Source: Parcubacteria group bacterium M6-OD1-4 (GTDB taxonomy: Bacteria > Patescibacteriota > Patescibacteriia > Patescibacteriales > UBA12465). From it: 60,201 bases of DNA. Location of the stretch: contig LSNS01000006.1 of the NCBI GenBank assembly GCA_003056205.1, positions 1 through 60,201 of the forward strand. Direction: 5' to 3'. The translations under genes and the position numbers were made by a program. Positions 20,703 through 29,059 of this stretch are shown here, in pieces (the stretch's first letter is position 1; each line of letters opens with the position of its first letter). The notes under the pieces were generated by a model. The model was not told the DNA's origin. It did not search any database and saw nothing but the letters and a program-made list of their open reading frames with translations.

Positions 20703-21491
20703 TCAGGAAGCTGAGCTTGAAGTTTTTTTCTCTCCAGCCTCATTCCAGAGAGAATTAAAAATAAATTTATTTATTTCATAAATATTCTTATTTTCAATAA
20801 TAATTGAAACCAGGTGTTCTTTATTGATGACTTGGAAAGATACTTTATTATCATAAATTTGAATTGCAGACTTGAATTGCACTAAATGCTTATTAAGATA
20901 ACGAATGTTCGTTATTTTTTTGTAGTCTAAATTGCTATTAGGTTCGTGAAACGGATCGGCACCAATTCTGATAATTCTTTTTGGTATTCCAAGTTGTTCG
21001 CGTCGGTTTTTGTACCAGGAATTTATTTTTCTAAATTCTTCTTCTTTTTGTAAAGCGCTTTTGTCAAGTAATAGACAAATTTCTGTTTTACTAGTTAAAG
21101 TATCTTCTAAAACTCTCCTAAAACCATCTTGACCTTCATAGAATTTAACCCCAGGTTTATTATTAATTAAATTATAACTGGAGATTAAATCTGGTAAAGA
21201 AGCTGTGAATTCTCTTTTAGTCTTATTAAGTTCTTTCTCACGATATTCCAAAACTTTTTCAAGATTTGCGGGATGTTCGACAATAAACAAAGTTACACTT
21301 GACTTACTTTCTTTTTTTGAAATCAAGCCCAAATCAATCAATTCTTCCAGCCCCTTATAGGTCACGCCCCGGGGTCTTTTTGTTTTTCTAGCAATATCAC
21401 TAGCCTTTAAAGGACCATTTTGTAGTAGGCAATCAAATATCTCAGCCTGAACATTAGTTAAACCGAGTTTGAGAAGTATTTTTTTATCCAT
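20703..21491 (-). CDS. TrmB-family transcriptional regulator (HTH + PLD-like sensor domain)
   Basis: LGLTNVQAEIFDCLLQNG...RGVTYKGLEELIDLGL; KPGVKFYEG; IQIYDNKV. Confidence 0.85.
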   Translation of the reverse strand: MDKKILLKLGLTNVQAEIFDCLLQNGPLKASDIARKTKRPRGVTYKGLEELIDLGLISKKESKSSVTLFIVEHPANLEKVLEYREKELNKTKREFTASLPDLISSYNLINNKPGVKFYEGQDGFRRVLEDTLTSKTEICLLLDKSALQKEEEFRKINSWYKNRREQLGIPKRIIRIGADPFHEPNSNLDYKKITNIRYLNKHLVQFKSAIQIYDNKVSFQVINKEHLVSIIIENKNIYEINKFIFNSLWNEAGEKKTSSSAS

Positions 21492-21660: not shown

Positions 21661-21689
21661 ACTATAGCAAAATAAAATATGTTTGTCAA
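21661..21689 (-). promoter_or_regulatory. Promoter of the trmB-like gene
   Basis: TTGACA-N17-TATAGT on the minus strand; overlaps palindrome ttgtca-N10-tgacaa (21683-21704). Confidence 0.65.
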
Positions 21690-21785
21690 CTTTAATAATG
21701 ACAAAATTAATAAATAAATATACTTGTTTTATACAGTATTGTCAGATGTTTTATTAACAATTATCAATAAATGTCCTAATTAGTA

Positions 21786-21814
21786 TTGACAGATATGTCA
21801 AGCTATGATATACT
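21786..21814 (+). promoter_or_regulatory. Promoter of the RNA-rich operon with a palindromic operator over the -35 box
   Basis: TTGACA-N17-TATACT with TG extension; TTGACA-gata-TGTCAA palindrome at 21786-21801. Confidence 0.75.
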
Positions 21815-21820
21815 GTCAGT

Positions 21821-22390
21821 ATTAAAAGTGAGAAAAACGAAAGGATGATGATTAAATCGTTCTCCTAAATAGATTAAGGAATAATCTATAGTGTACGTAA
21901 ATAATTTAAAGTGATTATGACAGTTTCAGGAGATTAAGATGAATTAACATCTACTTCTTTCTTAAAAAATAAGAAAGGAGTTAGGGAGAGAGTTCATTTC
22001 CTGAGGCTAGCAAGCACTTATTTGTTTGCTTTCATCTTCAGTCTTTGACTCAAGTTGAAATAAACGTTTGGTCGAGCTGATCCGAAGATTACGTTGCAAA
22101 CCGTAATCTCAGGCGCAGGCGATCTTAGTATCTTGTAACCGTATTTCCGCAAGGAGAAAAGGTTCGGAGAAAAGCGACCCAACGTGACCGTCTCTTATGA
22201 GGAGATCGGCTGAGCCCCTAAACCTTGAACAAGTTTAAGACTCAGGAATTTCCTCAGAAAAGAAAAAAAGAGGGAAAGTTCTTTGTCAAAAAAAATATTA
22301 AAATTTTTTTATTCTTTGAAAGGCATTATTCAGAGTATCCTGTTAGCGCATTATTAATTAGATGGGCGATAGAATACTCCGGACAATGTT
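21821..22390 (+). ncRNA. Long structured leader or ncRNA of unknown class
   Basis: About 11 near-contiguous stems with G-U pairs favouring the + strand, e.g. 21922-21934/21996-22008 and 22064-22074/22175-22185. Confidence 0.65.
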
Positions 22391-22414
22391 GCGAGGAGAG
22401 AAAAAACTAAGTCG

Positions 22415-22905: not shown

Positions 22906-23229
22906 ATGGAAAATTTAATTAATATGACTCCCCACCCGATTAATATTATCAAGGAAGGTCAGCCAACCAAAACCATCCCTATTTCAGGGAAATTGATTCG
23001 GTTGAAAACCTCCACAATATTAACGGGGGTTGAGGTCAATGGTGTGCGTTTATCTAAAACTGTTTTTGGTGAGCCCGAAGGGCTCCCGAAAGAAGTTGAA
23101 GGAACTTACATTATTGTTTCTCAGCTCGTGAAGTCAGCTTTGCCGCAACGTTCGGACCTTCTGGTCCCTGCTGAAGTGGTGAGGGATAACCAGGGACACA
23201 TCTTAGGATGTCGTTCTTTGGGAATCTAG
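22906..23229 (+). CDS. Hypothetical protein (107 aa, NxTPH ... IVSQLV ... VRD.QG.ILGC)
   Basis: ATG ORF in the operon; motif pattern recalled from phage-like uncharacterised proteins, not verified. Confidence 0.75.
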   Translation: MENLINMTPHPINIIKEGQPTKTIPISGKLIRLKTSTILTGVEVNGVRLSKTVFGEPEGLPKEVEGTYIIVSQLVKSALPQRSDLLVPAEVVRDNQGHILGCRSLGI

Positions 23230-23380
23230 GTTGATTTACGGAGGAGCCTGAACAGGATTCGGGGTGTTAAACAAACACCTGGCAACAGAATAAATAGTTT
23301 CCCGAATAGTAGAAAAATGGGTTAATAAGTCACTACGAAGTTCAAACAAAATCTGGATAACTATTGTTCAAATAGTTATC

Positions 23381-23433
23381 CTCCCTCTCGAAATGTGTGT
23401 TTCGACTGATGAGTCCAAAAGGACGAAAGGGAG
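23381..23433 (+). ncRNA. Hammerhead ribozyme, type III; predicted cleavage after C23387 (CUC triplet)
   Basis: ctccc-UC / stem I tcgaaa-tgtgtg-tttcga / CTGATGA / stem II gtcc-aaaa-ggac / GAAA / gggag: full core and three perfect stems. Confidence 0.92.
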
Positions 23434-23628
23434 TTGTTCATTTAAAATTAAGATAAATTAAATCTTTCATTTTTCTATTTTAATTTAATAATTCAAATAT
23501 TTTAATTCTTATTTTTAGTATTTTCTCAAAAAAGATATTAGAAATGAGAATTAAAATAATTTGTTAACTTTAAAAAAGGAGACCTAATGTGAGATTGATG
23601 AAAATCAAGGTAAGCGTTAGGAAGAAAG

Positions 23629-24867
23629 ATGAAAAAGGTTATTGTTTGTGGTCCGCCCCACTCTGGCAAATCGGTGTTTTTGGCCAATATCATGGCTAAA
23701 ATACCGTGTGATCAATATATATTGATCTATGGGTGTCCCGATGGTGAGGGACATTGGTCAAATATTGCCAACCAAAATGTAGCCCAGGCAATTAGACAGA
23801 AAGGTGTTTTTGACGCCACTTTTCTAAATTTCATTACGAAGTCCATCCGAAATGCCGAGCAACGCTTGGTGTTAGTAGATGTTGGAGGACGTCGCTCTTC
23901 TGAGAATGAAATTATTTTTCGCGAGTGCGAAGGGTATATTATTCTTTCGTCTTCGCCAGAAGAAATTTCGGCTTGGCGACAATTCGGTGATGGGCTGGGA
24001 CTGCAATGTCTAGCTGAACTGGATTCGCGGCTAAGTACAGAGGAGTCTGTTCTTTATCCCAACCAAGGTGATGGAATCCTGAGGGGTTTGGTTGTCGGGT
24101 TAGAACGGGGGACCTTCGTAAACTCGGTTGTAATTGATGTTTTAGTCAAACGATTCAAAGCAATAATTACAGCTAATAGCCAGATGACGCTGGCTGAAAA
24201 AGAAGCGGATATTTCTGGGATTCAATTAGCTGACAAGATTGGCATTGAAGACCGGACCGACCCATTCTTAGGTTATCGCCCCTGGCATTTAATGCCAGCT
24301 TTGAAGGCGGTAAAACGTCTGTATTCTAAAAAGATAATTCGCATTTGGAACATTCGCTCTTTTTGGACGGCATCAGCGATGGTTATTGCTTTCCAAAAAT
24401 CACTTGTGGAATTGTTTGATGTTTCTAATGGTTACATCGCAATTCCGAGTTTGAAACCAAAGAAGTCTGGGTCAGAAATTGGAATTGACTGGAGAGTAAA
24501 TGAATTTGACGATTTTACCATCGTTAACTTCAGGATTAATGGTGATATATTTGATATATCTACCTTACGGAAAGTGTACCCACCGGCCGTTAATCAAGCA
24601 AAAGGGGTGATAATTTCAGGTAGAGGACCGATTGTTTTAGGGGCGACTATTGCTCGTGCCTACAGCAATGGCAAACATCCGTTTATTGCGATGTTTGCTG
24701 CGGCAGAATCGGGCCGTAAACAGCTTTCTTTAAATGGTCAAAAATGGGATGAAGTCTATCCTGTTTGTGGCCCATGTGTGGAAATTGCCGGCCAGAATAT
24801 CGGACGGCTAATTCCTGTGAATACAGAAAATCTTAAATTTGAGGTCAAGGAGGACCCTATAAAATGA
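23629..24867 (+). CDS. csx3: P-loop NTPase fused to Csx3 (Crn3 ring-nuclease-like) domain(s)
   Basis: GPPHSGKS, CPDGEG, LVDVGG; C-terminal PPAVNQAKGVIISGRGPIVL matches the Csx3 signature. Confidence 0.8.
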   Translation: MKKVIVCGPPHSGKSVFLANIMAKIPCDQYILIYGCPDGEGHWSNIANQNVAQAIRQKGVFDATFLNFITKSIRNAEQRLVLVDVGGRRSSENEIIFRECEGYIILSSSPEEISAWRQFGDGLGLQCLAELDSRLSTEESVLYPNQGDGILRGLVVGLERGTFVNSVVIDVLVKRFKAIITANSQMTLAEKEADISGIQLADKIGIEDRTDPFLGYRPWHLMPALKAVKRLYSKKIIRIWNIRSFWTASAMVIAFQKSLVELFDVSNGYIAIPSLKPKKSGSEIGIDWRVNEFDDFTIVNFRINGDIFDISTLRKVYPPAVNQAKGVIISGRGPIVLGATIARAYSNGKHPFIAMFAAAESGRKQLSLNGQKWDEVYPVCGPCVEIAGQNIGRLIPVNTENLKFEVKEDPIK

Positions 24868-25358
24868 AAGAATTAAATTGGAAGTTAGCTGATGGTACTC
24901 TGGTTATTGATCGGAAAAATAGCCATCTAGCTAGCCATTTAAAGACTTACCCTTTATTGAGTGAGGCCTTGCCATTGGCTTTAGCTCAAATTGCTCCCCT
25001 TCATCAGAAAAATTTTCATCTCCAAGAAGTGAAGATGGATAAGGTTGTTGGTGAATCTATTTGTGTCGCTACTAATAAGAACGATGAAATTGTTTACGCC
25101 AAACGACCAAATCGTGAGGGGTTAACGCGATTCGTTAAGAATCGTGTCGCTGAAGAAAGTAACAAAATATCCGTCATCCTTAAGAAAGGTGAGGGATGTT
25201 ATATCCTTTTGTCCGCTTTTGTCGGTGGACTGACTCCTCCCGAGCCCTGGGACGAGCATGCCACTCCGGAGAGTTTTACGTTCTGGAACGAACATGCCCT
25301 AATTTGGGGTTGCGAAGAAATTGTTCCCGGGACTGAAACCCGAGATTGCCCTTGGTAG
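24864..25358 (+). CDS. Hypothetical protein (164 aa)
   Basis: ATGA overlap with the upstream gene; AGGAGG at 24848-24853. Confidence 0.75.
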   Translation: MKELNWKLADGTLVIDRKNSHLASHLKTYPLLSEALPLALAQIAPLHQKNFHLQEVKMDKVVGESICVATNKNDEIVYAKRPNREGLTRFVKNRVAEESNKISVILKKGEGCYILLSAFVGGLTPPEPWDEHATPESFTFWNEHALIWGCEEIVPGTETRDCPW

Positions 25359-25559
25359 TCTAAATCTCAAAGTTTAAGCGAATGATTTGTTTATATCATT
25401 CGCTTTCTTTCCAAGCTCGTCATTCGTGGCGGTTTTTGAGAGGAATTGCTCTCATTGTTCTTTTTTAATCTAATATTAATTGGTTGTCATTTACCATTAG
25501 TTTTTTGGTTTTATTGGTTGCTTATTTAAGGCGCTCAATAAAACCAAAAAACTGTAAAA

Positions 25560-28500
25560 ATGAAAAAATTAAAAAAATTACCCATCGATGCCTTTAAAAA
25601 TGAAATTTTAGAGTGTATTGAAAAGAACCCGGTTTCAATAATTGTGGCCGAAACTGGTGCCGGTAAATCTACTCGTGTACCACAATTTCTTTTAGAATCC
25701 ACGGATTGGCAAATTGTCGTTACGCAACCACGTCGTGTGGCTGCTAAAGCTATAGCCAAGCGTGTTGCTGAAGAAATGAATTGTCCATTTGGAGACCTAG
25801 TTGGTTTTCGAACGGCAATTGAGCATCGGGATAGTTCTGAAACCAGGTGTCTTTTTGTCACTGATGGTTTACAGCTCGTTCGTGAGCTGGTTAAGACCAA
25901 AGCATCAATAAGCGGCGGAATTTGTCTTCTTATTGATGAGGTCCATGAGTGGAATCTCAATATTGAGACTCTTGTGGCCTGGGCAAAGAGACATCTTCTC
26001 TCTGGCACTGATATTAAAGTTGTTTTAATGTCAGCTACATTAGATTTTAAAGAATTATCAAAATTTTTTGATGATGCTCCCGTAATTCAAGTCCCAGGAC
26101 GCTGTTTTCCAGTACTAGGTTCGCCTACACATCCAAATGGCATTATTCAGAAAGGATCTTATGAGATGCTCACTGAAATCCAGAGACTAATCGCCGAAGG
26201 TGCGAATTCACTTGTTTTTTTACCTGGTAAAGGTGAAATAAAACAAATGGAAAGAGAGCTAAAGCAAAGCAATCCGAAGGCGGAAATTTTACCATTACAT
26301 GGCGATGTTGATTCGAATCAACAAGAATTAGTCTTCAAATCCTTTGCTCAACCGAAGGTGGTGTTGGCAACTAATATTGCCCAGACATCATTAACAATTC
26401 CGGATATCGATGCTGTTGTTGATTCGGGCTTAGAGCGCAGAGTTGAACTCATTAATGGCGTCGAGACCTTGTTGCTGGCAAATGTTTCTCAGGCCGATTG
26501 TCGCCAAAGAGCTGGACGGGCCGGGAGAGTTAAAGAAGGTCAATATGTTTTATGTAATAATAAAGCATACGATTCTTTTTCAACCTTTCCAATACCAGAA
26601 ATTCAGCGTTCTTTGTTGGATCAAATGGTATTACGTTTAGCTGGTGCTAATTTAAATGTTTTAGAGCTTTCCTTTTATCATCAACCAGAAAAGCAAATTC
26701 TAGTTGATGCTAAAAAACTGCTTTATGCAATTGAAGCTCTTGATCTAAACGGAGAAATAACAAAACTGGGGCGAAAAATTAATCGTTTTCCAGTGAATGT
26801 TATGTTTGCTCGCATGATGTTGGAAGCACTGGAGCGTAAATGTTTGGCGCCAATACTCAGTATTGTAGCTATTTTAGGAACTCGCTATGGTTCCATTCGC
26901 CGCAGACAACGGGATAACGACCCAGAAACCTACCAGTCTTGGGAAAAACTTATCGATTCTGATAAAGAATATCACTCTGATCTTCTATTAGAATATGATT
27001 TGTTCAAAATAGCTCGCTTCATGAAAAGGAGTGAATTAGCTAAGAAAGGTATTGATCCGAAAGGTTTTCGGACGGCAGTTGAAATTCGGGAGCGGATAAA
27101 AACTGCAATTCACCATCTTGGATATCAGAACCAAGACCATAGCCGGAACAAAACAAATGAAGAAGAAATTCTGAAATGTATTGCTTCTGGAATGTTGGTT
27201 CATTTATACCAGCATGCGGGCGGTAATGAATATGTAAATGGGGAAACGCGCACTTTAGCTCGTGAATCCATTATTCAAAATCTTCCTAGTAATCCAGAAT
27301 GGATTGTCGGGGAACCATTGAATATAGACATTGTTAACCGACGTGGTCGGGCACAAACCATTGCCTTAGTTAAGAGTTGTACAGTGGTTGATCCCCTGTG
27401 GTTTATCAAAATTGCCCCGCACTTAGTGGAGCAAAAAATTGAGAACTTACGTTATGATGGGGAATTAATGGGTATAGTTGAAGATCATTTCGTGCTTTTT
27501 AACGGTGTTGAAATTGCCCGGAAGAAGAAGTTGGCAGACTATCGCCTAGAAGTGCTTGATAAATTCAGTTCGGCGTTAGCTCATCATTATTTTCCAAGTG
27601 ATTCTACTTGGCAACAGATTAGCGATGCTAATGAAGCCAATTTAGCAAAATACCGTAAATTTCGGATAAGAAGTGGTGGAATAATTGAGAATTTAGATTC
27701 ATCATTTTTATCCAATCACTATCAAAACGTGCTTGAGAAAGCCGTAAAAGATAAGAAAATAAAAAACTTATCTTTGCCGGTGATTGAGGCAACATTAGGT
27801 GGATTATCTTCGCTTTATTTACCGCTTGATTCGTATCTTTCGGCAGAAGAGGAAAATCGCATCAAACGCGAAAACCCCGATACTGTTGAAATAGCTGGTC
27901 AAGAGTATCCTGTTACTTATGGTCAATCAAGTAATGAATTCTATGCCCAGCTTTCAGTTGATAAGAAATTTATTCAAGAAACTAATCTGGAGCGGATCAA
28001 TCTTCCCAATGGTCGTGAGCTTGTGATTGAGTGCGAAAATTATTCAGGAACTTTTTCTGAAATTCGTATTAAATTTCAGGAACAAATGATCAATAACTTC
28101 AAAGCTGAAATTTCTCAGTTTATTGTCATTCCGCAAGAAGAACCGTTTCAGCGGAATAATTGGACATGGCAACTCACTGAGTTCGGACAAACTCTACAAA
28201 AATATTTTAATCAAATTCAAGTTGAAATTATTGAGAATTTAAATTCTGATAATCAGACGGAATTAATTGAAATAGTTAAGAGAAAAACTGAAGAAAAGAA
28301 AAAGAATCTTCTTATTGGATATGAAAAAGCCAATATTTTAATTAAAAATGAAGAGGATGATTTGGAAAAAACTTTAGTTGAATTTAATATGGAGTTTGCT
28401 CAAGAGGAAGTTCACCAAATTCGTAATCAGTTTATAGAAGTAAAATCGTTTTTGCAAAAAGCGAAATTTACAGAAATAAATAATTACTGTCGTGAGATAG

Positions 28501-28904
28501 AAAAAAGGATTACAGAATTAAAGCCGATGGTAGCAAAGCGGAAAAAAGAACGGGAAGATGTAGTCAAAAAAAATAATATTCCCAATTATCTTTTATCTGC
28601 CTTCGGTGGAGACTTGAGCCGCACCACCCAATTTCTGGCTAATGTTTCCAAGATTCAGACTTGGAGATTGGATGAACATGAAATCACTTGCGGTCGTTCT
28701 CGGGCGAGCCAGAATATCAAAGAAGCCTGGACTGCGATGAGAGAGAAGTCTGATTTCTTTTGTGGGGCTGATCCAAATGATGTTAAGTATTATGTACACG
28801 AATATCATTTTGGAAATAGTCAAAACGAAGAAGATGAATCAGAAATCGATTCATCCAGTGACGCTATGTTTGAGGCTTTGCGTCGGGCTGGTCTAGTCGA
28901 ATAG
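25560..28904 (+). CDS. DEAH/RHA-family RNA helicase (HrpA/HrpB-like) with long C-terminal extension
   Basis: AETGAGKST, TQPRRVAA, DEVH, MSAT, ATNIAQTSLTI, QRAGRAGR; HA2-like region. Confidence 0.9.
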   Translation: MKKLKKLPIDAFKNEILECIEKNPVSIIVAETGAGKSTRVPQFLLESTDWQIVVTQPRRVAAKAIAKRVAEEMNCPFGDLVGFRTAIEHRDSSETRCLFVTDGLQLVRELVKTKASISGGICLLIDEVHEWNLNIETLVAWAKRHLLSGTDIKVVLMSATLDFKELSKFFDDAPVIQVPGRCFPVLGSPTHPNGIIQKGSYEMLTEIQRLIAEGANSLVFLPGKGEIKQMERELKQSNPKAEILPLHGDVDSNQQELVFKSFAQPKVVLATNIAQTSLTIPDIDAVVDSGLERRVELINGVETLLLANVSQADCRQRAGRAGRVKEGQYVLCNNKAYDSFSTFPIPEIQRSLLDQMVLRLAGANLNVLELSFYHQPEKQILVDAKKLLYAIEALDLNGEITKLGRKINRFPVNVMFARMMLEALERKCLAPILSIVAILGTRYGSIRRRQRDNDPETYQSWEKLIDSDKEYHSDLLLEYDLFKIARFMKRSELAKKGIDPKGFRTAVEIRERIKTAIHHLGYQNQDHSRNKTNEEEILKCIASGMLVHLYQHAGGNEYVNGETRTLARESIIQNLPSNPEWIVGEPLNIDIVNRRGRAQTIALVKSCTVVDPLWFIKIAPHLVEQKIENLRYDGELMGIVEDHFVLFNGVEIARKKKLADYRLEVLDKFSSALAHHYFPSDSTWQQISDANEANLAKYRKFRIRSGGIIENLDSSFLSNHYQNVLEKAVKDKKIKNLSLPVIEATLGGLSSLYLPLDSYLSAEEENRIKRENPDTVEIAGQEYPVTYGQSSNEFYAQLSVDKKFIQETNLERINLPNGRELVIECENYSGTFSEIRIKFQEQMINNFKAEISQFIVIPQEEPFQRNNWTWQLTEFGQTLQKYFNQIQVEIIENLNSDNQTELIEIVKRKTEEKKKNLLIGYEKANILIKNEEDDLEKTLVEFNMEFAQEEVHQIRNQFIEVKSFLQKAKFTEINNYCREIEKRITELKPMVAKRKKEREDVVKKNNIPNYLLSAFGGDLSRTTQFLANVSKIQTWRLDEHEITCGRSRASQNIKEAWTAMREKSDFFCGADPNDVKYYVHEYHFGNSQNEEDESEIDSSSDAMFEALRRAGLVE

Positions 28905-29059
28905 TTTTTTGTCTTCCCTCGACATAAAATTGGGCGCTTTAATCCCTAAGAGCGAAATTCAGATGGGAATAAACTTAAAATTGCGAACAGGCTCGTTTAA
29001 CCTGTTCGCTTCTTTCCCGAAGATATCATTGAAAATGGTGTTTTCAGCAGAGAAATAAT

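Follow-up and report, generated by a model that had tools for sequence, protein, structure and literature searches.

A type III hammerhead ribozyme as one copy of a repeated unit in a Parcubacteria operon family

We analyzed a window of 60,201 nucleotides, which is the whole stretch of DNA presented here, from contig LSNS01000006.1 of Parcubacteria group bacterium M6-OD1-4. The window contains a plus-strand operon with a divergent regulator gene at its head and a hammerhead ribozyme between two of its cargo genes. The features of the operon are given below.

20703..21491 (-): TrmB-type regulator, divergent; next to the leader in the 13 operons mapped in genomes
21786..21814 (+): near-consensus sigma-70 promoter by sequence (11 of 12, extended -10), facing the operon
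21915..22260 (+): conserved structured leader RNA, ~350 nt, with covarying stems, a likely GUUUGC/GCAAAC pseudoknot and the terminal loop CUUGAACAA
22415..22810 (+): 131-aa unknown protein, in 7 of 148 family genomes; nearest Atlas clusters hypothetical and phage-rich
22906..23229 (+): Crn4b-family ring nuclease, 107 aa (PDB 9r7b, E 3.4e-13)
23338..23346 (+): linear AAGUUCA motif just 5' of the hairpin, conserved in most units
23355..23381 (+): 11-bp hairpin with a GUUCA loop (folding, pair probabilities, conservation)
23381..23433 (+): type III hammerhead ribozyme
23436..23447 (+): boxA-like motif 3 nt past stem III, predicted NusB-S10 site (conservation)
23462..23626 (+): 5' UTR of the downstream piece, a long AU-rich hairpin followed by a small internal-loop motif (folding, comparison)
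23629..24867 (+): P-loop NTPase with a Csx3/Crn3-like domain, 412 aa (sequence matches; SGRG motif kept)
24864..25358 (+): 164-aa phage-type protein, phrog_23674, fused to NTPase-Csx3 in genome G150
25377..25445 (+): second unit, a hairpin then a motif B stem (~25408-25445) instead of a hammerhead (pattern, fit to RNase III rules)
25560..28904 (+): DEAH/HrpA-like helicase, the last cargo gene (sequence match)
28983..29054 (+): terminal unit at the operon end, a hairpin and a motif B stem (~29015-29054) (pattern, fit to RNase III rules)

The hammerhead is intergenic, 152 nt past the Crn4 stop codon, with the NTPase-Csx3 gene downstream. A sequence-only reading, made without database searches, had described it as a complete type III ribozyme inside a protein-coding operon. 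Its position between plus-strand genes of the operon was right; that it lies in an intergenic region is the correction. Its parts on the plus strand, as read from the sequence, are the following.

23381-23386 (+): 5' strand of stem III
C23387 (+): predicted cleavage nucleotide C17, triplet CUC
23388-23393 / 23400-23405 (+): stem I, 6 bp, loop UGUGUG
23406-23412 (+): core CUGAUGA
23413-23416 / 23421-23424 (+): stem II, 4 bp, loop AAAA
23425-23428 (+): core GAAA
23428-23433 (+): 3' strand of stem III

These parts make up an intact, canonical type III hammerhead core. Both core strands (CUGANGA and GAAA) and an NUH triplet are present, stem III is the open stem, and the stems covary among homologues. 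The predicted cut after C23387 stands as first placed. The search with the Rfam hammerhead model that had been suggested gave a whole-model match: Hammerhead_3 (RF00008) aligned full-length to 23380-23434 with 40.6 bits (E 1.8e-6), yet this copy scores below the gathering score of 48.5 bits, which is a curation threshold. Because 40.6 bits is less than 48.5, an Rfam scan of the window at the gathering threshold missed the hammerhead and returned tRNAs only. At 48.5 bits, no genome of this group has an RF00008 match (0/61 and 0/151). The hammerhead is the sole RF00008 match across the 784,737-base genome. All core nucleotides, the three stems and the NUH triplet are as in the RF00008 class, and so is the signature of U in loop 1 and A in loop 2. 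The hammerhead differs in the sub-cut-off score, as do all matches in relatives and in the phylum, and in the conserved GUUCA hairpin that stacks on stem III. The RNA at 23381-23433 belongs to the known hammerhead class, and every sequence and structure feature compared agrees except the Rfam cut-off.

Folding of 23345-23450 gave z = -3.48, and 1 of 200 shuffled sequences was equally stable. The three stems and the upstream hairpin dominate the fold ensemble in contexts of up to 600 nt. Pair probabilities of the stems were 0.72-0.97 in four such contexts, the exception being the outermost pair of stem III, and stems I (6 bp) and II (4 bp) stand as first drawn. Stem III had been drawn as 5 bp plus the core U-A pair. 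The U-A pair and 4 bp hold, and the outermost pair is lost to the hairpin, since C23381 is common to both helices and favours the hairpin (p 0.77-0.87 vs. 0.12-0.23 for stem III). Stem III is therefore effectively 4 bp plus the core U-A. A strict descriptor matched once in the real 785-kb genome vs. no match in 40 simulated genomes, and a loose descriptor matched once vs. five times in the 40 simulated genomes. A contig from one DNA run, possibly of the source sample, spans the hammerhead, and no alternative letter is listed within it. Among RNA runs, none was listed as containing the sequence, which speaks neither for nor against transcription.

Rfam matches to the hammerhead were found in 4 of 36 same-genus genomes. 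A total of 26 hammerheads came from 11 of the operons fetched, and genome G020 has a further one of different structure. We aligned 24 of the 26, leaving out an identical duplicate and a copy with a long stem II insertion. In these 24 homologues, 99.2% of the stem cells are paired, and both sides have changed in 9 of 15 pairs. Neither the pairing nor the covariation score was reached by any of 500 shuffles of the 24 homologues, which are from kin rather than independent genomes, and kinship inflates such tests. In these homologues a U at the 5' end and a pyrimidine at the last position but one are kept in loop 1, and the final nucleotide of loop 2 is A. This is the sequence signature of the tertiary contact as described in the available part of PMC2632901, and it bears out the proposed interaction of loops 1 and 2 at the level of sequence.

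Variants of the core occur in 4 of the 26 units (U4C in three, C3U together with U4C in one). Otherwise intact units with these core variants were seen at L011:7299, L011:17993, L021:10846, L039:4810 and L208:7660-7714. The accessible text of PMC3088659 gives U4C as lowering hammerhead activity in vitro, and 4 of 18 consensus-conforming hammerheads as inactive in vitro. The ribozymes of these core-variant units may be tuned or decaying. Relatives also have one partial hammerhead copy and one with mismatches.

In an even draw of 150 other Patescibacteria genomes from across the phylum, matches were found in 12, all below the Rfam cut-off, and a descriptor applied to the 13 loci of this draw recovered 12 hammerheads. 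These type III hammerheads, in at least 12 of the 150 genomes and all sub-cut-off, suggest an overlooked reservoir. Viral contigs L023, L024 and L025 carry phage type III hammerheads, with three in a row at L024:2977-4527. Each of these follows a strong hairpin with a T-loop-like UUCAAA loop that ends 6 nt before the cut. At L028:4149-6097, on a Saccharibacteria-titled contig, four type III hammerheads in tandem lie between small genes, without the conserved leader.

Comparison of the operons showed that the hammerhead is one copy of a repeated unit, which consists of a GUUCA-loop hairpin, a cutting site and a boxA-like motif. The hairpin ends 5-7 nt before the cut in 26/26 operon units. Its stem sequence is variable. 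Its loop contains RUUY in each of the 16 units that were found by other means than the GUUCA pattern; loop counts were restricted to these 16 because the GTTCA-plus-hammerhead pattern selects GUUCA by construction. In the unbiased phylum sample, a hairpin stands 5-8 nt before the cut in 9 of 12 hammerheads, with mostly different loops. The position of the hairpin is therefore general, and the GUUCA loop is largely family-specific. In the modelled product, the hairpin at 23355-23381 would terminate the upstream piece and be followed by a 6-nt pyrimidine tail. The conserved position agrees with the protective role that had been proposed for this hairpin. Two other readings of the hairpin were rejected. 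A mimic of the tRNA T-arm fits some phage and non-Parcubacteria copies, and this copy is without a G-C closing the loop. An antisense terminator is called on the minus strand here, but the A-run is absent from some units.

A boxA-like motif of the form GUUCAUUUAAA lies 2-6 nt into the sequence scanned downstream of the hammerhead, in 23 of 26 units vs. 4.4% of random and 6.2% of AT-rich windows, an enrichment that is overstated because the pattern was derived from the same unit sequences. The same motif occurs 150-160 nt before the 16S gene in the rRNA leaders of 2/2 same-genus genomes. The B. subtilis boxA is AUGAUCUUUGAAA in the available text of PMC13753749. NusB was found in 4 of 5 genomes. 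With its resemblance to the organism's own rrn boxA and with NusB present, the motif is a putative boxA. Among the phylum-wide hammerheads, a boxA-like site follows only 3 of 12. No Rho was found over the cut-off in five genomes, where matches were at the ATPase level only, and a Rho-dependent reading of boxA was rejected on this ground. boxA would therefore act against intrinsic terminators. According to the part of PMC13753749 at hand, the boxA antitermination complex also interferes with intrinsic termination.

A hairpin scan of the operons showed that slots without a hammerhead often hold a second stem, here called motif B. The motif B set has 19 copies, namely 18 of 24 pattern matches and the copy at locus L077; the six matches dropped were five without a preceding hairpin and one weak fit. 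Motif B has a pyrimidine-purine lower stem, a C-G pair (19/19), a C.A mismatch (17/19) and an upper stem of 12-13 bp, which makes about one helical turn above the predicted cut. An A-U pair three pairs up and another eleven up are found in 19/19 copies, and a U.G nine up in 17/19. In the available text of PMC6212723, RNase III in vivo prefers a C-G or G-C pair between its cuts, with A-U at D and a G at J. With the C-G set as position A, a register chosen by us, motif B fits all three. The enrichment at the lower positions is overstated because the search pattern constrained positions 0-4 in part; it left positions 9 and 11 free. RNase III was found in 5/5 genomes. nusB and rnc (RNase III) are adjacent in the four genomes where both were found (G000:C6:23730-24976, G014, G016 and G150). 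Outside this operon, the same filter gave one more motif B match in the rest of the genome. E-value Rfam scans of the window and seven loci assigned motif B to no credible family. Motif B as a new ribozyme was rejected for now, as it is a plain stem obeying RNase III rules.

The two kinds of site occupy the same slot. After the Crn4 gene and a homologous 3' UTR, a hammerhead follows in genomes G000 and G013 and motif B in L077, whose hairpin is nearly identical to that of G013. The comparison thus shows that the hammerhead and the predicted RNase III-type stem interchange in one slot. As the ribozyme is replaceable by a nuclease site, it is most simply a processing site. The operon family is a natural experiment in this respect, in which the same slot, hairpin and upstream gene go with a hammerhead in one case and with a predicted RNase III site in another. 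If it is true that both cut equivalently, the ribozyme's job would be plain mRNA processing that gives defined, protected ends.

The conserved part of the operon is its head, which consists of regulator, promoter and leader, and the cargo is almost wholly variable. TGTCA...TGACA-type palindromes at 21786-21801 and ~21686-21704 overlap both divergent promoters and are candidate operators for the TrmB-type regulator. The leader shows two-sided changes in 30 of 64 predicted pairs. Of 316 genomes searched in the order, 13 have the leader at E below 1e-5, and another 23 matches, weak and short, were taken as chance. E-value Rfam scans of the window and seven loci gave no credible family for the leader. 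A boxA-like site follows the leader at 22278. One leader helix buries AGGAG...AUG, and a GGAGAGAG bulge, two alternative GAGGAG pairings and a near-invariant terminal loop were also seen. Leaders of relatives have up to 1.5 kb extra with several GGAGAGAG hairpins, and this genome has the short form. A CsrB-like sponge formed by the GGAGAGAG repeats was rejected because CsrA was found in 0/5 genomes. The leader pattern matched four stretches in viral contigs and 120 in metagenomes (13 of 64 parts scanned), of which a profile search confirmed only L077.

A hammerhead is present in 12 of the 13 genome operons, with one to five copies each, and the thirteenth operon stops at a contig edge after one motif B. 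Several hammerheads thus flank variable genes across the operons, with one only in this window. Records of the operon and unit elsewhere are mostly from Patescibacteria or Parcubacteria. Chromosomal genes, among them polA, ftsK and tRNA genes, flank the operons, the operon ORF maps showed no integrase, and a prophage or integrase context was not found for these operons. A low-sensitivity viral search with two cargo proteins gave no locus. An integron-like DNA cassette model is unsupported, as contigs of one DNA run showed no gene-skipping joints, though contigs drop rare forms. Among the cargo of the different operons are MoxR-vWA pairs, a glycosyltransferase and a radical SAM protein, besides many unknowns. 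The cargo resembles phage hypothetical proteins.

Such phage-like cargo would fit a relic, that is, a hammerhead that arrived with phage-derived genes and whose transcription and cleavage were then lost, and so would the partial and mismatched copies in relatives. The core and stems of this copy are perfect, however, the stems covary across 11 operons, the promoter is near consensus, and the geometry with the hairpin and boxA-like site is fixed. We regard decay to a relic as very improbable.

Ring-nuclease families (Crn4, Csx3-like and DUF1874) are present in 5 of 13 operons. The Crn4b protein of the window is a predicted ring nuclease by sequence likeness, and the family Thr, His and Arg, including the catalytic His and Arg, are aligned. 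These residues are named in the accessible part of PMC12830947, where Crn4b is also given as known from phages and plasmids. In the Csx3-like domain, H57, H60 and D69 are aligned to R, S and A, so that the catalytic residues are missing. In Csx3, H60 and D69 are required and H57 is conserved, as stated in the portion of PMC7371418 available. With the catalytic residues replaced, the domain is more likely a binder than a nuclease. The NTPase-Csx3 and phrog_23674 proteins are a single 573-aa ORF at L022:4418-6139, and this fusion suggests that the two proteins work together. DUF1874 (STIV B116 / AcrIII-1-like) cargo genes were found at L022:3775-4086 and L043:6171-6452. The operon family therefore has three ring-nuclease families without a type III CRISPR system found; the RAMP family was found in 0/5 genomes, which are 96-98% complete.

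Long hairpins that open with a U-rich UUUCAUUUUU-type block precede cargo genes at 22304-22402 and 23462-23575 (+). A covarying two-stem motif with a UGAGA / GGUAAG internal loop (23583-23620, +) adjoins the NTPase-Csx3 start and occurs in 3 of 4 NTPase-Csx3 loci. It is possibly an autoregulatory site or small aptamer. The motif was also seen at L011:7971 and L013:6309. A DUF805b RNA motif (RF02914, above cut-off) lies directly 5' of cargo genes at L208:9266-9300 and L046:2574-2608.

We think it likely that the hammerhead cuts its own transcript after C23387, as one of several interchangeable sites that make separately protected pieces. A single transcript would start at the promoter at 21786-21814. 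The cut after C23387 would be co-transcriptional and protein-free. The 3' end of the Crn4 piece would then consist of the 11-bp hairpin and a 6-nt tail with a 2',3'-cyclic phosphate. The 5'-OH of the NTPase-Csx3 piece would sit immediately at stem I, which as a terminal hairpin would hinder RNase J; stem I was computed to fold alone as the 5'-terminal hairpin of this piece. The boxA-like site 3 nt downstream would reload NusB-S10 antitermination, so that the polymerase passes later U-tailed hairpins. If true, the boxA-like site shows how cutting coexists with processive transcription. RNase III would make equivalent cuts at ~25410 and ~29015. Clustered hammerheads cut polycistronic RNAs of ~2 kb in vitro and in E. 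coli, as reported in the available text of PMC3088659.

The processing model is least certain about what becomes of the downstream piece. RNase J was found in 5/5 genomes and RNase E in 0/5, and the 5'-OH piece could therefore be degraded instead of protected. This leads to the leading rival of processing, in which the active ribozyme is an attenuator: RNase J degrades the exposed 5'-OH piece, as after glmS cleavage, and lowers expression of the downstream genes relative to the upstream ones. RNase J1 is the nuclease that degrades glmS mRNA after cleavage. The occurrence of core variants of differing strength also fits attenuation. In the type III topology, however, the downstream piece begins with stem I, which has 6-7 bp and is 99% paired. 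In genome G150, hammerheads (5 units) precede nearly every gene block, and the whole cargo would be silenced. A ligand-binding domain is not evident. Cleavage of glmS followed by RNase degradation is a precedent given in the consulted part of PMC6765202. On balance, we consider attenuation unlikely.

The hammerheads could also act in pairs. Each pair would release a gene unit, the ends of which would form a hammerhead again and be ligated to give a circular mRNA, as in retrozymes. Cross-pairing of stem III is possible in 10 of 15 consecutive hammerhead pairs, and two copies in genome G018 are identical. However, the same stem III test passes between genomes in 214 of 504 pairs. This window has a single hammerhead, and the piece downstream of it is bounded by an RNase III-type stem. 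RtcB was found in 0/5 genomes, and two compatible hammerheads around a unit together with a ligation route were not found. In the accessible text of PMC3088659, Perreault et al. detected no circles. Circular mRNA therefore seems very unlikely. Retrozymes and viroid-type tandem hammerheads, as covered in the available part of PMC6765202, share with the operon units the type III fold, direct orientation and position flanking a stretch. In the operon, by contrast, terminal repeats are absent, RtcB was not found, the genome has one copy only and the cross-compatibility of stem III is unreliable. The same part of that source describes the purpose of self-cleaving ribozymes between bacterial and phage genes as unresolved.

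Processing into separate pieces has closer counterparts. In the available text of Perreault 2011 (PMC3088659), clustered hammerheads lie between variable prophage genes including anti-restriction ardA, with cleavage shown and processing proposed. Several hammerheads amid changing genes are common to both systems, and so is an anti-defence gene (ardA there, ring-nuclease families here). Those clusters are in prophage as described there, whereas ours are in a chromosomal operon whose regulator, promoter and ~350-nt leader are fixed and whose ORF maps showed no integrase. Compared with that text, this operon family also has a 3'-protecting hairpin and a boxA-like motif per site, and an RNase III-type stem as alternative. 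The RNase III intergenic stems in the consulted portion of PMC6212723 share with motif B, with its 12-13-bp upper stem, the preferred A, D and J pairs. The difference is that the predicted stem here alternates with a ribozyme behind one conserved hairpin. The rrn boxA (NusB-S10; PMC13753749, as far as its available text goes) resembles the present case in that a boxA-like motif follows the leader and the processing sites and NusB is present. Here, in contrast, the cargo is protein-coding, the motif is repeated per gene block and Rho was not found. We found no paper on this Patescibacteria system in the open-access literature. T7 early RNA is a polycistronic RNA with RNase III processing stems between its genes. 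For a boxA-like motif at the transcript start, the lambda N leader is the comparison from antitermination.

Orphan ring-nuclease genes in a host-dependent bacterium, with type III CRISPR not found, raise the question of interference with host defence signalling. A speculative and improbable extension of the processing model is that the operon is a phage-style host-takeover cassette of a parasitic CPR bacterium. Its antiterminated transcript would be cut by ribozymes and RNase III into unit mRNAs for ring nucleases and other effectors. The GUUCA 3' tags would dock by loop-loop pairing on the leader UUGAAC loop, which would bundle messages or products and blunt the cyclic-oligonucleotide defence signalling of the host. 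In operons with AUUCA hairpins, a compensating leader change was not found. The GUUCA hairpin and the near-invariant leader UUGAAC loop have 6-bp complementarity, extending to 8 bp for this copy. The sole leader loop variant seen, UUGAAU in genome G141, keeps the complementarity through a G.U pair.
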